NCBI GenBank assembly: GCA_043821445.1
Contig: JBDRCT010000013.1
Coordinates: 82,149-146,148, forward strand
Direction of reading: 5' to 3'
DNA length: 64,000 nt
Source of the DNA: Candidatus Omnitrophota bacterium
GTDB taxonomy: Bacteria > Omnitrophota > Omnitrophia > Omnitrophales > Aquincolibacteriaceae
In this document: positions 10,120 through 35,358 of the stretch, in pieces
Layout: every line of letters starts with the position of its first letter
How positions within the stretch are numbered: the first letter of the stretch is position 1
Notes under the pieces: generated by a model
What the model saw: the letters and a program-made list of their open reading frames with translations, nothing else
What the model was told of the DNA's origin: nothing
Databases searched by the model: none
Made by a program: the position numbers and the translations under genes

Positions 10120-10126
10120 TCAGATC

Positions 10127-10197
10127 TGCCCCGCCTGGGCTCGAACCAGGAACCTTGCCTCCAAAGGGCAGTGTGATACCATTTCACCACGGGGCAA
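10127..10197 (-). tRNA. tRNA-Gln (anticodon UUG), no encoded CCA
   Basis: TGCCCCG...CGGGGCA 7-bp acceptor stem with U1-A72 and G73 (both typical of bacterial tRNA-Gln), D-arm GTGA/TCAC, anticodon loop CTTTGGA, T-arm CCTGG-TTCGAGC-CCAGG; cloverleaf folded by hand; 27-43 pair is a C/A mismatch. Confidence 0.75.
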
Positions 10198-13605: not shown

Positions 13606-14604
13606 TTATTTTATTTGAAGTGCCGGATCGCCGGTCATATTAAGTTTCGACCGTTTCCCGTTTTGATAAAGTTCAAAACCCCGGCGTGCGATCATGGCCG
13701 CATTGTCCGTGCTGAGCACAAACGGCGGGAACCAGACCTTGATCCCTAACTTACCGGCGTCCTGCGTGAGTTTTTCGCGCAGATAGGAATTCGCGCTTAC
13801 GCCTCCGCCGACTACGATATCGGACACGCCTTTGAATTGGGCGGCGTCGAGCGCCTTCTCGACGAGCCAGCCGATCACGGCATGCTGAAAACTCGCAGCC
13901 ATATCTTTCTGCGAAGGTGCCAAGGGGTTCGGCTTCCCGGTCTTGGGGTCCCGGAACTGATAGAGCACGGCCGTTTTCACGCCGCTGAAACTGAAGTTGA
14001 ATCGCTTGTCCTGTTTGGGTCTTGTAAAATGAAAAGCCCGCGGGTTCCCTTCTTTCGCGAGTTTATCCAGAATGGGCCCGCCGGGGTAACTGAGCCCCAT
14101 GATCTTCGCGACCTTGTCGTACGCCTCGCCCACTGCGTCATCGACGGTCTCGCCCAGGATATGGACCTTCTCTTTTTCGCAGAATGTGAGCATCGTATGC
14201 CCGCCCGAGACCAGAAGTCCGATAAAACGCTTGGGTTCCCGGGCTCCGAAGAAATTGGCGACCAGATGTGCTTCCATGTGATGGACCCCCACCACCGGGA
14301 TCTCTAGTTGATACGCGAGTGCTTTGGCGAATGCGACGCCGACCAAAAGAGAACCGATGAGCCCCGGGCCTTGGGTTACGGCGATGAGATCGAGATCCCG
14401 GGGTTTGATCCTGGCTTCACGAAGCGCCTCCTCGAACACGCATTGGATCTGTTCCATGCAGTGCCGGGACGCGATCTCGGGCACCACACCGCCGAATTTC
14501 TTGTGCCGGAAAAGACTGGAGGAAACAACATTGGAAAGGATCGTATCTTTGCCGCGCAGGACCGAGCACGACGTTTCGTCGCAGGAGGTTTCGATGCCGA
14601 GCAT
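13606..14604 (-). CDS. tsaD: tRNA N6-adenosine threonylcarbamoyltransferase TsaD
   Basis: MLGIETSCDETS..., HHMEAH, GGGVSAN motifs; real start is the internal ATG at 14604; the track ORF extends upstream through a repeat. Confidence 0.85.
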   Translation of the reverse strand: MLGIETSCDETSCSVLRGKDTILSNVVSSSLFRHKKFGGVVPEIASRHCMEQIQCVFEEALREARIKPRDLDLIAVTQGPGLIGSLLVGVAFAKALAYQLEIPVVGVHHMEAHLVANFFGAREPKRFIGLLVSGGHTMLTFCEKEKVHILGETVDDAVGEAYDKVAKIMGLSYPGGPILDKLAKEGNPRAFHFTRPKQDKRFNFSFSGVKTAVLYQFRDPKTGKPNPLAPSQKDMAASFQHAVIGWLVEKALDAAQFKGVSDIVVGGGVSANSYLREKLTQDAGKLGIKVWFPPFVLSTDNAAMIARRGFELYQNGKRSKLNMTGDPALQIK

Positions 14605-14608
14605 GTAA

Positions 14609-14674
14609 TGCGCACAACGTGCAGGGCGCAACGCTCCCTTTTGTTTTGTTGTGCGTTGAGCGTTGCGCGTTGCG
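14609..14674. repeat. CAACG/CGTTG-rich palindromic intergenic element, copy 1, filling the gatB-tsaD spacer exactly
   Basis: gcgcacaacgtgcagggcgcaacgctccc-ttttgttttgtt-gtgcgttgagcgttgcgcgttgcgc; similar elements at 24781 and 58701. Confidence 0.5.
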
Positions 14675-16177
14675 CTAACTCGCGAGTTTTTTCTGGAGGA
14701 TTTCATTGACGATCTTCGGATTCGCTTTCCCCTGCGTCTCTTTCATCACCGCGCCGACAAGAGCGCCGAGGGCCTTTTGTTTCCCGGTCTTGAACTCCGC
14801 GACCGCGGCGGGGTTCGCGGCGATGGCCTTCTCGACCGCCTTCTCGATCAACCCCGTGTCCGAGACTTGCGTAAGGCCTTTTTCTTTGACGATCGCTTCC
14901 GCGGCCTTGCCGGTCGCCGCCATCTCCTGAAGTACGTCCTTGGCAGTCTTTCCGCTCAAGGTCCCCTGTTCGACAAGACGGATCAGCCCTGCAAGCGCGT
15001 GCGGTGAGACGGAGCAATCCTCGATCGCAATATTTTTCGCGTTCAAGAGGGCGAGAAGCTCGTTCTGAACCCAGTTGCTCGCGAGTTTAGCGGGGGCCCC
15101 TTCGCGAACACAGGACTCAAAATATCCCGCGAGTTTCTTCTCCTGCACCAGCACATAGGCGTCATATTCCGGAATGCCGAATTCCCTGATGAACCGCTTC
15201 GCGCGTTCAAGCGGCAACTCGGGCAAAGTCTTGCGGACCTCTTCGACGGTCTCGCGGGTGAGCGTGAACGGGACAAGATCCGGCTCCGGGAAATAGCGGT
15301 AATCATGGGCTTCTTCTTTGGAGCGCATGGAAAACGTCGTGCCTTTGGCATCATTCCAAAGCCGCGTTTCCTGGACGATCGTTTCCCCGTTCTTGAGCGC
15401 TTCGGTCTGCCGCTCAATTTCATACTGAATGGCTTTTTGCACCATCTTAAAAGAATTCAGGTTCTTGATCTCGACCTTGGTGCCTAATTTTTCCTGGCTC
15501 ACGGGCCGCACCGACACGTTCGCGTCACAGCGAAGGCTCCCCTTTTCCATATCACAGTCGCTCACTTCCAGATATTGAAGAATAGCCTTTAGCGCGGTGA
15601 GGTAATCGTAAGCCTCCTGCGGGCTCCCGAGGTCCGGCTCGGAAACGATCTCAAGAAGCGGAATGCCGCCCCGGTTATAATCCACCAGGCTCCCGTCCGC
15701 AATGCCTTCATGAAGGAGTTTTCCCGCGTCCTCTTCCAGATGCGCGCGTGTGATGCCGATCCGTTTTAAGACCACGGACGACAGACCACAGTCTACAGCC
15801 CCTGCTTTTTCCTTTTTTGCTGCGGTCTTCGGTCTGCAGTCTGCAGTCTGGGTTTCGATATCGACGAAACCTTTACCGTTCACCGGCATGTCAAATTGCG
15901 AGATCTGGTAGGCCTTGGGAAGGTCCGGATAAAAATAATTCTTCCGGTCGAATTTGAGCCGCTCCGCCACCTTGCAATTGAGCGCAAGCCCGACCCGTAT
16001 CGCAAGCTTCAAGGCCGCTTCGTTTAGGACCGGCAACGATCCCGGCCAGCCAAGACACACCGGACACGTATGCTTGTTCCCCTCCGCTCCAAACTCCGTG
16101 GAGCATGAGCAGAAGAGCTTCGACTTCGTTTTCAGTTGTACGTGGACCTCAAGCCCAATGACGGGTTCGTAGTTCAT
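14675..16177 (-). CDS. gatB: Asp/Glu-tRNA amidotransferase subunit B
   Basis: MNYEPVIGLEVHVQLKTKSKLFCSC...; full-length GatB with a ~25-aa palindromic in-frame insert (15781-15860); ATG has no SD. Confidence 0.9.
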   Translation of the reverse strand: MNYEPVIGLEVHVQLKTKSKLFCSCSTEFGAEGNKHTCPVCLGWPGSLPVLNEAALKLAIRVGLALNCKVAERLKFDRKNYFYPDLPKAYQISQFDMPVNGKGFVDIETQTADCRPKTAAKKEKAGAVDCGLSSVVLKRIGITRAHLEEDAGKLLHEGIADGSLVDYNRGGIPLLEIVSEPDLGSPQEAYDYLTALKAILQYLEVSDCDMEKGSLRCDANVSVRPVSQEKLGTKVEIKNLNSFKMVQKAIQYEIERQTEALKNGETIVQETRLWNDAKGTTFSMRSKEEAHDYRYFPEPDLVPFTLTRETVEEVRKTLPELPLERAKRFIREFGIPEYDAYVLVQEKKLAGYFESCVREGAPAKLASNWVQNELLALLNAKNIAIEDCSVSPHALAGLIRLVEQGTLSGKTAKDVLQEMAATGKAAEAIVKEKGLTQVSDTGLIEKAVEKAIAANPAAVAEFKTGKQKALGALVGAVMKETQGKANPKIVNEILQKKLAS

Positions 16178-16293
16178 AAACTAGTACGGGGTACGGAGTA
16201 CGGCGTCTCGCGTTCTTTTTTCATGTGCGCCGCACACCTTCCGCCTCTCGCAGTTTTCCGGACTTCAAGTCCAATGACCGGTTCGCAATTCAT
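16174..16293 (-). CDS. 39-codon bridging ORF whose first 11 codons are a diverged duplicate of the gatB start (MNCEPVIGLEV...)
   Basis: ATG overlaps the TGA of the 341-aa ORF (ATGA) and its TGA overlaps the gatB ATG (ATGA); 28/33 nt identical to gatB 5' end, 4 of 5 substitutions synonymous. Confidence 0.4.
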   Translation of the reverse strand: MNCEPVIGLEVRKTARGGRCAAHMKKERETPYSVPRTSL

Positions 16294-17315
16294 ATTTTTT
16301 CACCATCAACCAGCAACTTCTTCTTTGAAGATTTCCCTCTTTTCTTTGACATTTCCAGAAGCCACTGATCAACATACTTGATTAAACTGCAACCAGCCCT
16401 TGCCACCTCGTTAAAATATCGCGTTGTTTGGATATGACTGATAGTTAGTTTTGTTCCCACTTTGAGTCTTGTCTTGTTTTTGTCCTTATATTCAGAGTCG
16501 ATAATACCGCCCCGATGAGCAATTAAATGCCGAATGCTTTCCATTCTTTTTAAAACAGTCCCATCTTGAAATGCTGTATTCAGGAAGTCTTCATCGCTCT
16601 TAGAGCCTATCCTAATAGCCTTGTAAGCTTTTCTCATACCCTTCAAGCTCGTAAAATCAAACTTCTCGGACAGCAATGCTCCCAAGTATTTCTTGATATT
16701 AAAATCATACTTTGATAGAAGCCCAACGCTAAACCCCTTCTTTGTAATCTTGTCTTCATCCTCATCTTTATCTGTTGCGCCCAACACCTTTTCAACCAAC
16801 AGAGTTGGGTTAGCATTAACCATTAAAATCCAGGCGTCTTTCACCAGCGATTCGAACGCTACCCAACTATTCATCACGCCAGATAAATACAGCGCTCGTA
16901 TCGCTGTTTTAAGCTTTTGATCTTTTTTGATTTTTTGATCTAGGCTACGAAAAGCCGCATCGATCACATCTTCCTTTGTAAAACCTTTTTGTTTTTGAAT
17001 TTTTTCGATTTCTTCTTTTAAGAAACTATTATTTTGCTCCTCAGAATCTTTGTTTCTTCTTGGAAAACTGCGTACCTCAGCTAACGTTTGTATTGCGAAA
17101 TGTTGAATTTCATAAGATGCTAGCGTAGAAAAATGCAGGGGCAGCATTTCCAGACTTAAGACATCTTCTAAGTTAACTGAGAAAGCCTTAGCAGCCCCGC
17201 GCAAAGCTTTTGATTGAATGCCGGCAACAACAGCTTCAATTTCATCGCTAACAATTTCTGTTTTCCTTCCTATAGACAAATAATGTCTCCGCACCACGCT
17301 TTGTGCTTTCTCCAT
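16290..17315 (-). CDS. Hypothetical 341-aa protein, AT-rich; possible HEPN-type (Rx4H) nuclease domain
   Basis: Motif MESIRHLIAHRGG (R-[NH]-x3-H as in Abi_2/RiboL-PSP HEPN families) near the C-terminal third; Lys/Glu-rich, much lower GC than flanks. Confidence 0.5.
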   Translation of the reverse strand: MEKAQSVVRRHYLSIGRKTEIVSDEIEAVVAGIQSKALRGAAKAFSVNLEDVLSLEMLPLHFSTLASYEIQHFAIQTLAEVRSFPRRNKDSEEQNNSFLKEEIEKIQKQKGFTKEDVIDAAFRSLDQKIKKDQKLKTAIRALYLSGVMNSWVAFESLVKDAWILMVNANPTLLVEKVLGATDKDEDEDKITKKGFSVGLLSKYDFNIKKYLGALLSEKFDFTSLKGMRKAYKAIRIGSKSDEDFLNTAFQDGTVLKRMESIRHLIAHRGGIIDSEYKDKNKTRLKVGTKLTISHIQTTRYFNEVARAGCSLIKYVDQWLLEMSKKRGKSSKKKLLVDGEKI

Positions 17316-17640
17316 ATTTTTTATGCCCCCATAAAAGTATGTATAAAGTAGGTGTCCTCCGCCATAAAACTTTGGCGGACAAGTGCAGCTGGACGCCCTA
17401 TAAAGTAGGCGTCCTACAACTGAACACCCTACGTATTTTCTTCCAATATTTCCGTCGACGGAAATATTGGCCGGTCACTTCGATTCATCGGACGTCCGAT
17501 AAATCTACCGAACGCCCAATTCTCAATTTTTCCGCATGCGGAAAAATCTGCCGAGACCCTCAACCCTTCAATTTTCCCGCATGCGGGAAAATCTGCTGCT
17601 TATCCCAATTTCCCCACATGCGGGGAAATCGTTCTGCACC
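17316..17640. repeat. Array of different perfect palindromes (28, 14, 20, 22, 20 nt) and CCCAATT + hairpin modules upstream of the 341-aa ORF
   Basis: ccaatatttccgtcgacggaaatattgg (17443-17470), atcggacgtccgat (17487-17500), tttttccgcatgcggaaaaa (17527-17546), attttcccgcatgcgggaaaat (17571-17592), tttccccacatgcggggaaa (17609-17628); direct repeat tataaagtaggYgtcct at 17342 and 17399. Confidence 0.65.
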
Positions 17641-17644
17641 TCAG

Positions 17645-17851
17645 CTATAAGCTATGGCCTTTGCCGTACTTCGCGTCTTCTTCACGGACAAGGTCGAATG
17701 CCTTGGCCGCGGCGTCAAACCGGTCGGAAAAATCGATCCGCTCCTCCCTCATCTTCGCCATCAGAAGCTCGTGATACTTGGTCCGGAGGGCATGGACCTT
17801 TTCCTTGGCGTGCGGCTCTTCCTCAGATATCTCCCGCTCCGCCTTGACCAA
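17645..17851 (-). CDS. Small hypothetical ORF (68 aa) inside the island
   Basis: ORF only; helical, charged; no recognizable motif. Confidence 0.3.
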   Translation of the reverse strand: MVKAEREISEEEPHAKEKVHALRTKYHELLMAKMREERIDFSDRFDAAAKAFDLVREEDAKYGKGHSL

Positions 17852-17883
17852 ATCTGTATAAATTCTTGCGATCTCAAGAACCG

Positions 17884-18114
17884 TTATAGCTCACCATGTG
17901 CGATCCGTATGGCGATCCGGGTCGCATGCTCTCTGTCCTTGTACTTGATCCCCTGTTTCTTGAGCAATTCAATGAATTTCCAGCGCAGGTCGATCTGCTT
18001 CTCCTCGAGAACCTGTAATTCCTCGGGGTTTGTCGTTTTTTCGATCTTTTCGATCACTTCAACATATTTTTTGGCTACGAGATACAGGTTATTCGTCATT
18101 ACTTCAGTCTCCAT
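17884..18114 (-). CDS. Small hypothetical ORF (~76 aa from METEV...) inside the island
   Basis: Ends ...KDREHATRIAIRIAHGEL (an Rx6H-G tail); start trimmed to METEV because the track start overlaps repeat cluster B. Confidence 0.35.
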   Translation of the reverse strand: METEVMTNNLYLVAKKYVEVIEKIEKTTNPEELQVLEEKQIDLRWKFIELLKKQGIKYKDREHATRIAIRIAHGEL

Positions 18115-18120
18115 GTAAAA

Positions 18121-18262
18121 ACGGACGTCCTGCAACAGAACAATTCATTCCCAATTGTTCGGCATGCCTTCCTAACCCTTCGATTTTGCCGCATGCGGCA
18201 AAATTCATTCCCAATTTCCTGGCCCGCCGGGCAATTCATCCGCTTGACAAAGGAATTAGCGG
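18121..18262. repeat. Second array of CCCAATT + palindrome modules between the RhuM-Fic gene and the small ORFs
   Basis: ggacgtcc, caattcattcccaatt-gttcGGCATGCC, attttgccgcatgcggcaaaat (22-nt perfect palindrome, 18183-18204), aaattcattcccaatt-tcctGGCCCGCCGGGC. Confidence 0.65.
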
Positions 18263-18266
18263 CCTA

Positions 18267-19241
18267 TCAGCCTAACAAATTCAAGATCACTTTAGTCATG
18301 ACATCTTTTTCGGATGCTTTGCTGGCCGCGACCATCAAGGTCAATGCCACAAGGGCATTGTCATCGATCCGCCGAGTTCCATCCTTACACAAGAGAATGC
18401 CATTTCTCTGCAGAAAACAGACGAACAACGCCGCAGCGATCCGCTTATTCCCGTCCACAAAGCTGTGGTTCTTGGTCACGAAGTACAAAAGATGCGCGGC
18501 TTTTTCCTCGACTGTCGGATACACGTCCTTGCCGCCGAAGGTCTGATAAACAGCTCCGATGGAACTTCGGAAACCAGCGTCCTTTTCCCTGCCCACGAGC
18601 GCCGAATCATGAAACTTCTTTTTCATGGTCTCGATGATCTTTCGGGCTTCTTCATAAGTCAGTTCGAATCTGGCTTTTTTTGTCCCCTTGGGTTTTGAGA
18701 GCTTTTCGTGGTCAAAATCGTCGAGGATGTCCAACGCACGGGAATACTCCGTAATTACCTGGGCGATCCCTGCCGCTTCTGGAGCCAAGCCTTCGACCGC
18801 CGCGACATTCCCGATAAGAGCTATCGCCTTTCGAAGTTCCAGGTATTTGCCTTGAGCCGCCCGTAACCTCTTTTCGTTAAGGGTATATCCCTCGATCAAA
18901 TGCTTTTTCAGCACCTGAGTGGCCCAAATCCGGAATTGCGTTCCCCTCTTGGAATTGACCCGATAACCAACGGAAATGATCATATCGAGGTTATAAAATG
19001 TTACGGGTTTATCGGAGTTAGCAATGTGCATTTTTTGCACATTGCTTTTTTGCTCTAATTCCCCCGTATTGAATATGTTATGAATATGCTTCGTAATAAC
19101 ACTCCGTTCTATTTCGAAAAGTTCGGACATTTGTTTTTGCGTAAGCCAAACAGTGTCCTTATCAAGACGGACCTCAAATCGATCCTTATAGAGGATGACC
19201 TCTCCGCCCTTTACTTCGTTATTATTTTCAAGGCCGCTCAT
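18267..19241 (-). CDS. RhuM-family N-terminal domain fused to Fic/Doc (death-on-curing type) domain
   Basis: N-term VWLTQKQMSELF...FYNLDMIISVGYRVNSKRGTQFRIWATQ (RhuM); C-term HSFVDGNKRIAAALF (Fic/Doc HxFx[DN]GNKR motif); ATG overlaps gatA TGA. Confidence 0.8.
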   Translation of the reverse strand: MSGLENNNEVKGGEVILYKDRFEVRLDKDTVWLTQKQMSELFEIERSVITKHIHNIFNTGELEQKSNVQKMHIANSDKPVTFYNLDMIISVGYRVNSKRGTQFRIWATQVLKKHLIEGYTLNEKRLRAAQGKYLELRKAIALIGNVAAVEGLAPEAAGIAQVITEYSRALDILDDFDHEKLSKPKGTKKARFELTYEEARKIIETMKKKFHDSALVGREKDAGFRSSIGAVYQTFGGKDVYPTVEEKAAHLLYFVTKNHSFVDGNKRIAAALFVCFLQRNGILLCKDGTRRIDDNALVALTLMVAASKASEKDVMTKVILNLLG

Positions 19242-20698
19242 AATTGAGGCTTCCGCTTGTAAAATTCCGTTTCCTGCTCAAAGGCGTGGGCGGCGCGGAG
19301 CATGGTGGATTCGTCGAACGGACGGGCCATGAGCTGCATGCCGATGGGAAGACCGCCGCTTGTGAATCCGCACGGGACCGACATCGCCGGAATTCCCGCC
19401 AGGTTCGCCGGGATCGTAAAAATATCAGACAAGTACATCGCAATCGGGTCCGCGGCCTTCTCACCGATCTTGAACGCCGCGGTGGGCGACGTAGGCGAAA
19501 GGATCACATCCACTTCTTTAAACGCCTTTTCGAAATCTTGGCGGATGAGCGTGCGGACCTTCTGCCCTTTCAGGTAATACGCTTCGTAATAACCGGCCGA
19601 GAGGACAAAGGTGCCGAGCAGAATGCGGCGTTTCGCCTCCTGTCCGAACCCACGGTCGCGTGTCTCAAAATACATCTCGCGAAGATCTTTCGCATGGACC
19701 CTCAAACCGTATTCCACGCCGTCAAAGCGGCCGAGGTTTGAACTCGCCTCCGCCACGGCGACAATATAGTAAACAGCGACCGAATACTCCGTGTGCGGAA
19801 GACTGATCGTCCTGATCTCGGCGCCGAGCTTCTTATAGATCTCCGCGGCCTGGTGCACGCTTTTTTCGATCTGAGGATCGATCCCCGCGATGAAATATTC
19901 TTTCGGGAGACCGATCTTAAGACCCTTCACATTGCGCGTGAGCGCCTGCGTAAAATCCGGAACGTTCTCGGGCGAAGAAGTGGAATCCTTCGGATCATGA
20001 CCGCACAGGATATTCATCAGAATGGCCGCATCTTCCACGGTTTTGGTGAGAGGACCGATCTGGTCAAAGCTGGAGCCGAATGCGATAAGCCCGTAGCGCG
20101 ACACGCGTCCGTAGGTGGGTTTCACGCCGACCACGCCGCAAAGTGCCGCGGGTTGACGGATCGAACCGCCGGTATCGGACCCCAAAGCCGCAACCGTCAT
20201 GTCCGCCGCGACTGAAGCCGCCGAGCCGCCGCTGGAGCCGCCCGGCACGCGCTCCAGGTCCCAGGGATTCCGGCACGGACCGAACGCGGAAGTCTCACAG
20301 GAGGAACCGAACGCGAATTCATCCATGTTGCACTGCCCGAAAAGCGTCGCGCCCGCATTTTTAAGTTTCGTGATCACGGTCGCATCGTAGGGGGGCACGT
20401 GCTTCGCCAGGATCTTCGACGCGCAGGTCACTTCCCTGCCATCAATGCAAATGTTGTCCTTGATGGAGATGGGAACGCCGTAAAGCGGCCCTTTACCAAT
20501 CACCCTGCGTGTCGCACTGCGTAAGTCTGATTCATCACCGTTATCCAGTGCAATGGGATGATCCGAGCGTAGAAACGCATTTATTTTCGGATTCAGGGCT
20601 TTGACGCGTTTTTCGAAAGCTTTAAGAATGGTCGGCGGGCCGACTTGTTTAGAGATCCCGATCGCTTCTTTGAGAGTCAGAGAACAGAGGTCGGTCAT
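19238..20698 (-). CDS. gatA: Glutamyl-tRNA(Gln) amidotransferase subunit A
   Basis: Amidase signature GGSSGGSAASVAA, 486 aa. Confidence 0.9.
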   Translation of the reverse strand: MTDLCSLTLKEAIGISKQVGPPTILKAFEKRVKALNPKINAFLRSDHPIALDNGDESDLRSATRRVIGKGPLYGVPISIKDNICIDGREVTCASKILAKHVPPYDATVITKLKNAGATLFGQCNMDEFAFGSSCETSAFGPCRNPWDLERVPGGSSGGSAASVAADMTVAALGSDTGGSIRQPAALCGVVGVKPTYGRVSRYGLIAFGSSFDQIGPLTKTVEDAAILMNILCGHDPKDSTSSPENVPDFTQALTRNVKGLKIGLPKEYFIAGIDPQIEKSVHQAAEIYKKLGAEIRTISLPHTEYSVAVYYIVAVAEASSNLGRFDGVEYGLRVHAKDLREMYFETRDRGFGQEAKRRILLGTFVLSAGYYEAYYLKGQKVRTLIRQDFEKAFKEVDVILSPTSPTAAFKIGEKAADPIAMYLSDIFTIPANLAGIPAMSVPCGFTSGGLPIGMQLMARPFDESTMLRAAHAFEQETEFYKRKPQL

Positions 20699-20976
20699 CG
20701 TTGCACGATCTTGGGGACCTTGAAGAAAGGACCCTCGGTCTGCGGGGCGTGTTCGAGGGCCTTGGGGGCGGCGTCCGAGGGCTTTACTTCATCGGCGCGG
20801 AACACGTTCTCCATATTGAGGACATGGCTCGTGGGCTCGACATCCTTCGTGTCCAAGGCGTCCAGCTTTTGGACATAGGCAAGAATGGCGTCGAGATCTT
20901 TTGCGAGCTTCTGTTTTTCTTCGGGTTTCAGATTGAGCCGCGCGAGTTCGGCGACCCTTTCGATATTGAATTCCAT
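20695..20976 (-). CDS. gatC: Asp/Glu-tRNA amidotransferase subunit C
   Basis: 93 aa, LARLNLKPEE...FFKVPKI; AGGAGG SD. Confidence 0.85.
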   Translation of the reverse strand: MEFNIERVAELARLNLKPEEKQKLAKDLDAILAYVQKLDALDTKDVEPTSHVLNMENVFRADEVKPSDAAPKALEHAPQTEGPFFKVPKIVQR

Positions 20977-34208: not shown

Positions 34209-34228
34209 TTATGCACATATGTGCATAA
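34209..34228. promoter_or_regulatory. Perfect 20-nt palindrome TTATGCACATATGTGCATAA 13 nt upstream of the DUF134-1 start (candidate operator)
   Basis: 15/20 positions identical to the palindrome upstream of DUF134-2 (38366-38385); consensus TTATnnnCATATGnnnATAA. Confidence 0.5.
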
Positions 34229-35188: not shown

Positions 35189-35358
35189 GTTTTTTCCTCC
35201 GGTTTTGAGGTGCTGTCTTTTTTTTCTAATTTTTGCCTGCCCGCGGGCAGGCAATCGGGGCCGCAGCGCCCTCCGCCCTTTTTGCCAAAAAAACAACGTA
35301 GCGCAAGAAGAGCCGCCAATGCCACAACGCTTAATGCAATGGTCTCATTAGTTTCCAT
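35185..35358 (-). CDS. FeoB-associated Cys-rich small membrane protein (57 aa; not in ORF track)
   Basis: METNETIALSVVALAALLALRCFFGKKGGGRCGPDCLPAGRQ...; one TM + Cys cluster; AGAGGA SD; TGA overlaps barrel ATG. Confidence 0.45.
   Translation of the reverse strand: METNETIALSVVALAALLALRCFFGKKGGGRCGPDCLPAGRQKLEKKDSTSKPEEKT

Follow-up and report, generated by a model that had tools for sequence, protein, structure and literature searches.

Our analysis of a 64,000-nucleotide stretch of a metagenome-assembled Candidatus Omnitrophota genome (contig JBDRCT010000013.1; the whole stretch is called the window below) indicates that gatA and gatB, genes for two subunits of the tRNA amidotransferase GatCAB, are separated there by a group of toxin- and defence-type genes. 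We think it probable that this group is a long-resident toxin/defence islet, nested in the gatC-gatA-islet-gatB-tsaD operon of one Omnitrophota clade, and that it combines fixed with exchangeable parts. The fixed part consists of a conserved anchor gene, which encodes a RhuM-Fic/Doc fusion (RhuM-Doc), and of two small genes for proteins of 71 and 68 amino acids (aa); all three descend by vertical inheritance, and purifying selection acts on them as strongly as on their essential neighbours. The exchangeable part is a slot directly upstream of gatB that takes foreign genes resembling those of abortive infection (Abi), and in the window it is occupied by a gene for a 341-aa protein, followed by a 39-codon bridging open reading frame (ORF39).

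The gatA-gatB site in related genomes

The islet occupies the identical site between gatA and gatB in three further lineages (loci L084, L092 and L101), and the synteny gatCAB-tsaD-mgtC-hisG is common to these and the window. At L084-L087, gatC and gatA are followed through an ATGA overlap by RhuM-Doc (90% aa identity), hairpins, a gene for a 273-aa AbiJ_NTD4 protein and then gatB-tsaD-mgtC-hisG; the small proteins are missing from L084. At L092-L095, gatA again overlaps RhuM-Doc (84% aa identity) by ATGA, and there follow 71-aa and 80-aa genes, hairpins, the gene for a 272-aa protein and gatB. The gatA/RhuM-Doc junction is identical in L084 and L092, and in these two the slot gene ends 1 or 6 nucleotides (nt) before the gatB ATG, without overlap. 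At L101 (GatB 83% identical) a Phd-Doc pair stands in place of RhuM-Doc after gatA, and is followed by a remnant of the 71-aa gene, a 77-aa gene, a gene for a 194-aa secreted protein, a fragment of the gatB start (26 codons), a fragmented Fic gene and finally gatB with a new TTG/GTG start.

The nearest outgroup (L001 and L102; GatA 83%, GatB 68-69% identical) has a bare gatA-ATGA-gatB overlap (aaATTATGAatt), so that an insert does interrupt a gatA/gatB junction here, as the original prediction, made from the window's sequence, had proposed. The site thus offers what a hotspot offers, namely four cargo variants (window, L084, L092, L101) and an empty state (L001, L102). Across diverse gatB loci, gatA is nearly always directly adjacent to gatB where it lies upstream. 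Few other gatB loci that we examined have an interrupted junction; one is that of a Firestonebacteria metagenome-assembled genome (L017 4612-5199), where a 91-aa zinc-ribbon-like reading frame lies between the two genes. A metagenome scan with GatB added L101 as the sole in-clade locus among the matches listed. The same architecture as in the window was seen in at least 8 independent metagenome samples, and this, together with the collinearity of both flanks of the 341-aa gene with relatives, rules out an assembly chimera.

How old is the islet? Against L092, the synonymous divergence (dS) is 0.91 for RhuM-Doc, 0.63 for the 71-aa gene and 0.53 for the 68-aa gene, compared with 0.38-0.65 for gatC, gatA, gatB and tsaD; against L084 it is 1.23 for RhuM-Doc and 0.77-1.18 for the flanking genes. 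Since dS of the islet genes is similar to that of the gat genes, RhuM-Doc and the two small genes must have been resident since the common ancestor of the clade. The ratio of nonsynonymous to synonymous divergence (dN/dS) is 0.05-0.13 for the islet genes (RhuM-Doc 0.05-0.10, 71-aa gene 0.06, 68-aa gene 0.09-0.13) and 0.07-0.15 for the flanking genes. The gene abutting gatB is different in every lineage and AT-rich, with a GC content of 0.39 in the window, 0.32 in L092 and 0.42 in L084.

These results change the picture given by the original prediction, in which a single cassette of about 3 kb had recently been spliced whole into the gatA/gatB junction by homologous recombination, to become locked in position as an obligatory relay for gatB translation. 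With RhuM-Doc and the 71-aa and 68-aa genes sharing the dS of the gat genes against two relatives, and hence being old residents, only the last slot is foreign, and the sole parts of the islet unique to this genome are the 341-aa gene and ORF39. Moreover, the content is replaceable, as the Phd-Doc pair of L101 demonstrates, and the last gene of L084 and L092 does not overlap gatB. We therefore consider a recent insertion of the whole improbable, even though it would account for the ATGA overlaps at the outer junctions, the lower GC content and a copy of the gatB start with mostly synonymous changes, and even though no islet-free clade member with GatB identity of at least 80% was found among the matches listed. 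Conservation of the housekeeping kind in relatives, which the prediction had itself named as speaking against it, is seen for RhuM-Doc and the small genes and not for the last slot. Import by recombination from an islet-carrying relative, also part of the prediction, fits the copied gatB start where the 341-aa gene is concerned, while the rest of the insert is old.

Layout of the operon

The features of the operon are collected in Table 1. The gatA TGA overlaps the RhuM-Doc ATG (caaTTATGAgcg), and ATGA overlaps also join the 341-aa gene to ORF39 (aaaatATGAatt) and ORF39 to gatB (agtTTATGAact). The expectation of such an overlap at every junction of the insert holds for these three, but the three internal junctions are palindrome-filled spacers of 32-330 nt without overlap. 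As the gatC stop and gatA start form an ATGA overlap too, and 4-nt overlaps occur at 4 of the 47 other co-directional junctions of the window, this style of junction is native to the genome. Several further observations of the original prediction were confirmed: the insert is AT-richer than its surroundings (GC 0.39-0.47, with 0.47 for RhuM-Doc and 0.39 for the 341-aa gene, against 0.55-0.58, or about 0.56, in the flanks), no purine-rich Shine-Dalgarno (SD) sequence precedes gatB, and recombinase genes are missing both from the insert and from the roughly 8 kb on either side. The sequence thus has both elements of a termination-reinitiation architecture, a stop/start overlap and an SD-less downstream gene.

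Table 1. Features of the gat operon and the nested islet (window coordinates)
Feature	Position	Strand	Remarks
gatC	20695..20976	-	first gene of the operon; Pfam GatC E 5e-23
gatA	19238..20698	-	Pfam Amidase E 1e-159
RhuM-Fic/Doc fusion, 324 aa	18267..19241	-	Pfam RhuM E 5e-22, Fic E 1e-11
spacer A, with sense-oriented hairpin elements, e.g. ATTTTGCCGCATGCGGCAAAAT	18100..18266	-	covariance-model match 39 bits
small helical protein, 71 aa	17884..18099	-	open reading frame and L092 conservation
small helical protein, 68 aa	17645..17851	-	open reading frame and conservation in L092, L101
spacer C	17316..17644	-	5 tandem hairpins 17438-17633, then two L092-shared blocks
341-aa open reading frame, variable slot	16290..17315	-	GC 0.39
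39-codon bridging open reading frame (ORF39)	16174..16293	-	ATGA overlaps at both ends
gatB, intact	14675..16177	-	Pfam GatB_N E 8e-121, GatB_Yqey E 6e-55
tsaD, next gene of the same co-directional run	13606..14706	-	overlapped 32 nt by gatB

A promoter-like TTGACA-17-CAGAAT lies upstream of gatC (21031-21003), as found by a consensus scan that is not calibrated for Omnitrophota. The 8 kb upstream of the operon encode a porin, an LPG-synthase-like protein, AhpC and AcrB, and the 8 kb downstream carry tsaD, mgtC, hisG, a GHMP kinase gene, tRNA-Gln and ABC permease genes. The tRNA-Gln(UUG) gene (10125-10197) is on the same strand as gatB and 4.5 kb downstream of it; Glu-charged tRNA-Gln is the substrate amidated by GatCAB.

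A scar at the gatB start

ORF39 consists of a 34-nt copy of the gatB 5' end (gatB', 16260-16293) and an 84-nt tail. In the 34-nt alignment, gatB' and the gatB start are identical at 28 of 33 positions, with a score of 43 against a shuffle maximum of 30, and four of the five substitutions, read from the sequence, are synonymous; both counts agree with those of the original prediction. By our own estimate, at least four synonymous changes in five would arise under neutrality with P ~0.02, and the mostly synonymous divergence suggests that gatB' originated in the functional gatB of another lineage. In the simplest history, the donor of the 341-aa gene would have carried it directly upstream of gatB, as L084 and L092 carry their slot genes. 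We ruled out that the tail is a decayed piece of gatB, as its 84 nt have no similarity to that gene. The tail (window 16178-16259) contains part of a palindromic element, and shares a 31-nt block of 90% identity (ACGCCGTACTCCGTAC...) with L084 8652-8682. The latter belongs to an imperfect palindrome (L084 8600-8690) in the spacer between hisG and the GHMP kinase gene of L084/L085, and since the block is common to both places we regard it as a low-copy repeat element.

Similar scars occur elsewhere. L101 carries, on the left side of an inserted Fic gene, a 69-nt gatB' that is identical at 65 of 69 nt; among 165 diverse gatB loci this locus is the only one with a second gatB 5' fragment, the shorter copy of the window coming in addition. 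In the variant islet of L101 (4080-7010), the fragmented Fic gene sits 26 codons into gatB, whose functional start appears to be the new TTG/GTG provided by the insert. In another Omnitrophota genome (L088 7930-8980) RhuM-Doc lies between ruvC and ruvA, preceded by an 18-codon mini-reading frame copied from the ruvA start (ruvA', 29 of 37 nt) whose stop is 1 nt ahead of the RhuM-Doc ATG; ruvA itself starts 4 nt after the RhuM-Doc stop. RhuM-Doc is also found, co-directional with its neighbours, between pyrR and pyrB in the complete Omnitrophota genome CP070797.1 (L096 5464-7969) and upstream of polA in another Omnitrophota genome (L097 5653-10022), and it lies upstream of a type I restriction-modification system in a deltaproteobacterium (L099). 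There are no gatB' fragments in L084 and L092, and no pyrB' or polA' fragments in L096 and L097. In this small sample, then, the nesting of RhuM-Doc in housekeeping operons recurs.

One may go further and suppose that Omnitrophota harbour a whole class of cassettes, recombinase-free or guided by hairpins, that nest in operons, although we find this doubtful. Toxin or defence genes, among them those for RhuM-Doc, Fic and HEPN-like proteins, would on this account enter a housekeeping gene a few codons into its 5' end (gatB twice, ruvA once); the displaced 5' fragment would become a mini-reading frame that keeps the native initiation site and passes ribosomes on to the cassette, and the start of the target gene would be regenerated at the far end, leaving the essential gene to be expressed only through the cassette. 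If true, this would be a distinct route by which selfish or defence genes reach constitutive expression and become difficult to lose.

Hairpin arrays in the spacers

The palindrome arrays of the insert, already noted in the original prediction, are real. Perfect stems of at least 9 bp number 14 in the 64 kb, where 1.65 are expected for the whole window, and 4 of them fall within a 0.7-kb part of the insert. In the window, L084 and L092 alike, the spacers after RhuM-Doc and before the slot gene contain hairpins in tandem, whose flanks are conserved as G-A(A)TT...AA(A)TTG and whose cores vary but remain complementary. The fold of spacer C is far more stable than that of shuffled sequences (z = -10.5), and blastn blocks shared with L092 (17442-17403 and 17398-17345) lie just upstream of the variable gene. 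In 11 hairpin copies, 99% of cells pair and 19 cells are changed on both sides compared with 6.2 expected, a count that is partly circular because the sequences were selected as palindromes. Across 222 kb including the window, matches to a covariance model of the hairpins (R1) are confined to the islet spacers of the window, L084 and L092; they reach 28-43 bits in spacer C, with sense-strand scores about 18 bits above antisense, and an exact-pattern search agrees that the islet hairpins are not dispersed. No Rfam family was found in the insert even at E <= 1. Two more perfect palindromes of 20-22 bp, at window 34209-34228 (TTATGCACATATGTGCATAA) and 35233-35254 (TTGCCTGCCCGCGGGCAGGCAA), are unrelated to the islet hairpins.

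Short GC-cored hairpins in tandem, lying within one transcription unit and having stems that covary and flanks that are conserved, are reminiscent of repetitive extragenic palindromes (REP) and bacterial interspersed mosaic elements (BIME). However, the islet hairpins have one orientation, no gene for a REP-associated tyrosine transposase was seen, and their copies are confined to the islet spacers instead of being spread genome-wide, so that we reject this membership. Integron cassettes are likewise promoter-less, co-oriented single-gene modules, often toxins, between structured palindromes. Yet the insert and its surroundings have no integrase gene (intI), its palindromes are perfect and tandem, without the attC R''/R' cores (GTTRRRY/RYYYAAC pairs), and the setting is a housekeeping operon; we reject this membership too. 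We infer instead that the hairpins are structured elements specific to the islet, acting on the mRNA or at recombination boundaries.

Could a trans-acting enzyme that reads the hairpins, such as an IS200/IS605-type or REP-associated Y1 transposase or an integron-like recombinase, move the cassettes, choosing the 5' ends of genes in operons as its targets and producing the 5' duplications as a by-product? Such an enzyme would explain why oriented, islet-specific arrays with conserved flanks and covarying stems stand at module boundaries, and why 5' ends of target genes are duplicated at three independent insertions, one of which (L101) provides a new gatB start codon; one homologue of the 341-aa protein, moreover, adjoins a Y1_Tnp gene. 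But no enzyme of this kind is found near the islet in the window, the hairpins come in tandem arrays of 1-5 rather than one per cassette and lack attC R'/R'' cores, and the RhuM-Doc insertions of L088, L096 and L097 have none. The duplications vary in length (34, 37 and 69 nt), and two of them have diverged mostly synonymously or conservatively, which fits allele exchange better than target-site duplication. Considering also the partial circularity of the covariation count, we hold mobilization of this sort to be quite unlikely.

Proteins of the islet

The Fic domain of RhuM-Doc (residues 194-277) matches Pfam PF02661 with E 1.2e-11, and Doc-like matches come from PHROG 577 (Doc-like toxin, E 3e-18) and from the PDB entry for Doc, 9vzc_A (E 5e-6). 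The protein matches the PADLOC model of PDC-S23 at full length (PDLC04965, E 3.9e-129, residues 21-323 against 18-323 of the 327 model positions). Its active-site motif HxFx(D/E)GN(G/K)R is present as HSFVDGNKR, intact and not degenerate, as the original prediction had read it, and L084 has the same motif. No Phd-type antitoxin gene lies immediately upstream; the gene there is gatA, and the N-terminus is formed by the RhuM domain. A literature search found no paper on PDC-S23, which is a candidate family only, or on RhuM together with Omnitrophota. Fusions of RhuM with Doc are frequent, and RhuM is found together with HEPN proteins in loci for defence (Anantharaman et al. 2013, PMC3710099).

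From such sequence matches we would expect the islet proteins to have toxin or defence activity. A domesticated function of RhuM-Doc and the small proteins in translation or in connection with GatCAB, for example as a growth brake that phosphorylates EF-Tu, on which Doc toxins act, would agree with a dN/dS as low as that of the essential neighbours and with long vertical inheritance in a translation-related operon, but it appears very improbable in view of the close homologues in unrelated operons (between ruvC and ruvA, between pyrR and pyrB, upstream of polA, beside type I restriction-modification genes), the extent of the family (more than 8,000 clusters, with at least 70% identity across phyla), the replacement of RhuM-Doc in L101, the lack of the small proteins in L084, and the full-length match to a defence-candidate model.

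Inside the RhuM-Doc reading frame lies a palindrome, AAAAAA-GCAATGTGCA-AAAAA-TGCACATTGC (window 19015-19056), which is nucleotide-identical in the RhuM-Doc genes of the window, L084, L088, L097 and L099 despite dS above 1. Among codon pairs for the same amino acid, the identical fraction is 0.90 at residues 63-75, compared with 0.46 gene-wide. On the antisense strand the palindrome reads as a hairpin with a T-run, about 35 nt after a promoter-like TTGACC-17-GATCAT (18955-18983). Candidate roles for it are a ~60-nt antisense RNA, a site of slippage or a site of recombination.

The 341-aa protein, which is 100% identical to NCBI ABH891_02150 (encoded on a 151-kb contig), is predicted to begin with a helical domain and to end with a HEPN-like one that contains R262-x4-H267 (RHLIAH). 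The resemblance to HEPN ribonucleases claimed in the original prediction is borne out in that a set of 61 homologues (21-30% identity) retains R262 and H267 without exception, but not by the curated HEPN sequence models, none of which matched; one of the 61 homologues gave a marginal match to HEPN_RiboL-PSP (E 0.083). The protein has no Pfam match, a Foldseek comparison with the PDB gave nothing significant and a sequence-profile search of the PDB nothing at all. No similarity between its family and the AbiJ-like protein of L084 was detected by hhalign, and neither tblastn against plasmids and phages nor a scan of viral contigs with a degenerate motif returned any match. It is not an orphan: a word-indexed search gave 3 matches, but an exhaustive HMMER search gave 1,596 representatives, and a profile search of the word-indexed database made no additions. 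The family is probably of the HEPN type and as yet unannotated. Its members are solitary and lie in unrelated places (beside a Y1 transposase gene, among small toxin-antitoxin genes, after metH). The homologue closest to the 341-aa protein outside this genome (31% identical; L181 154-2194) comes from a 2.3-kb contig, where its neighbour is an IS200/IS605-type Y1 transposase gene. In L084 the slot gene encodes an AbiJ_NTD4/PDC-S32 protein, and that of L092, which is AT-rich, a membrane-like one.

Neither of the two small proteins received a family assignment from our searches, the 71-aa protein having no significant family match. The latter begins at an ATG with GGAG upstream (it is listed as 83 aa from a TTG), has 91-93% aa identity to its counterpart in L092 and is partly conserved in L101; the 68-aa protein is 87-92% identical to L092 and 80-84% to L101. 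Both are helical and their similarity to each other is weak (E 0.013), so that the 68-aa protein is possibly a paralogue of the 71-aa protein.

Discussion

How could a toxin gene come to be kept inside an operon of essential genes? In the history that we favour, a RhuM-Doc fusion of the PDC-S23 type would have taken over the ATGA coupling site that earlier served gatB, and with the two small helical proteins after it would have formed a trio that was inherited vertically from then on. The slot directly upstream of gatB would have received compositionally foreign, single-gene Abi-like effectors, of which the HEPN-like 341-aa protein is the present one. Presumably the islet is co-transcribed with the operon from the gat promoter, RhuM-Doc is translated by termination-reinitiation at the gatA stop, and the SD-less gatB is reinitiated after whatever reading frame ends at or beside its ATG, here ORF39. 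Relatives would swap the slot gene by recombination in the conserved flanks, the left one being RhuM-Doc with the small genes and the right one gatB. Here the right end of the exchange may have been resolved illegitimately, leaving as a scar 34 nt of the donor gatB start and an 84-nt remnant of a repeat element, and this scar, ORF39, would happen to keep gatB coupled. The hairpin arrays of the spacers may serve as punctuation at the RNA level or as recombination-prone boundaries.

Some considerations weigh against this interpretation. Co-transcription, translational coupling and toxic or anti-phage activity are all deduced from sequence, and the consensus scans for promoters and terminators, which are not calibrated for Omnitrophota, gave no significant excess. 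The recombination history is drawn from one 34-nt scar. We estimate the chance probability that ORF39 stays open and ends at the gatB ATG as ~0.09, the product of (61/64)^28, the chance of an open tail, and 1/3, that of the right frame, and for this reason its ending on that ATG is suggestive rather than compelling. Finally, the housekeeping-level conservation of RhuM-Doc could be a sign of a domesticated cellular role.

Among known systems, the feature is best classed with the defence hotspots that core genes flank, as a variant set within an essential operon and made up of a long-fixed RhuM-Doc and one exchangeable slot. It shares with such hotspots the variable content between conserved genes, the compositionally foreign cargo of Abi-like or defence-candidate type (here PDC-S23, PDC-S32, HEPN-like, Doc and Fic), and a spot without a recombinase, for which exchange through homologous flanks is presumed. 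However, the islet is enclosed by an essential operon and separates two genes that were at first joined by a stop/start overlap; its cargo is all co-oriented and, by prediction, partly coupled in translation; one of its cargo genes is fixed and has co-diverged with its neighbours for a dS of about 1; and its scars repeat the 5' end of the gene that follows. With Phd-Doc type II toxin-antitoxin modules and Fic/Doc toxins RhuM-Doc has in common the C-terminal Doc signature HxFxDGNKR and the matches to Fic, Doc-like proteins and the Doc structure, and a true Phd-Doc pair occupies the same position in L101. Unlike them, it has no upstream Phd-like gene, carries a fused N-terminal RhuM domain and overlaps the gatA stop with its ATG. 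The 341-aa protein resembles the HEPN Abi proteins (AbiJ, AbiD/F, AbiU2; PMC3710099) in joining, by prediction, an N-terminal helical domain to a C-terminal helical bundle with a conserved R-x4-H, and in being encoded by a solitary mobile gene. An association with RhuM and Doc, noted for other HEPN families (PMC3710099), is seen for the 341-aa gene as well.

Defence and toxin genes are usually placed in islands beside mobile elements or between core genes, under promoters of their own. Here the hotspot lies inside an essential and, as we predict, translationally chained operon, an unusual place for it, and one toxin-type gene is kept as faithfully as the essential genes around it while the adjoining slot turns over. 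Our analysis adds an unannotated and probably HEPN-type family with ~1,600 cluster representatives, and finds RhuM-Doc genes in gat, ruv and pyr operons, a pattern that recurs within a little-studied phylum. If the coupling is true, it would make the expression of an essential tRNA-amidotransferase subunit dependent on foreign reading frames, and it would offer such genes an easy way to be expressed constitutively and to be shielded from deletion by their position.

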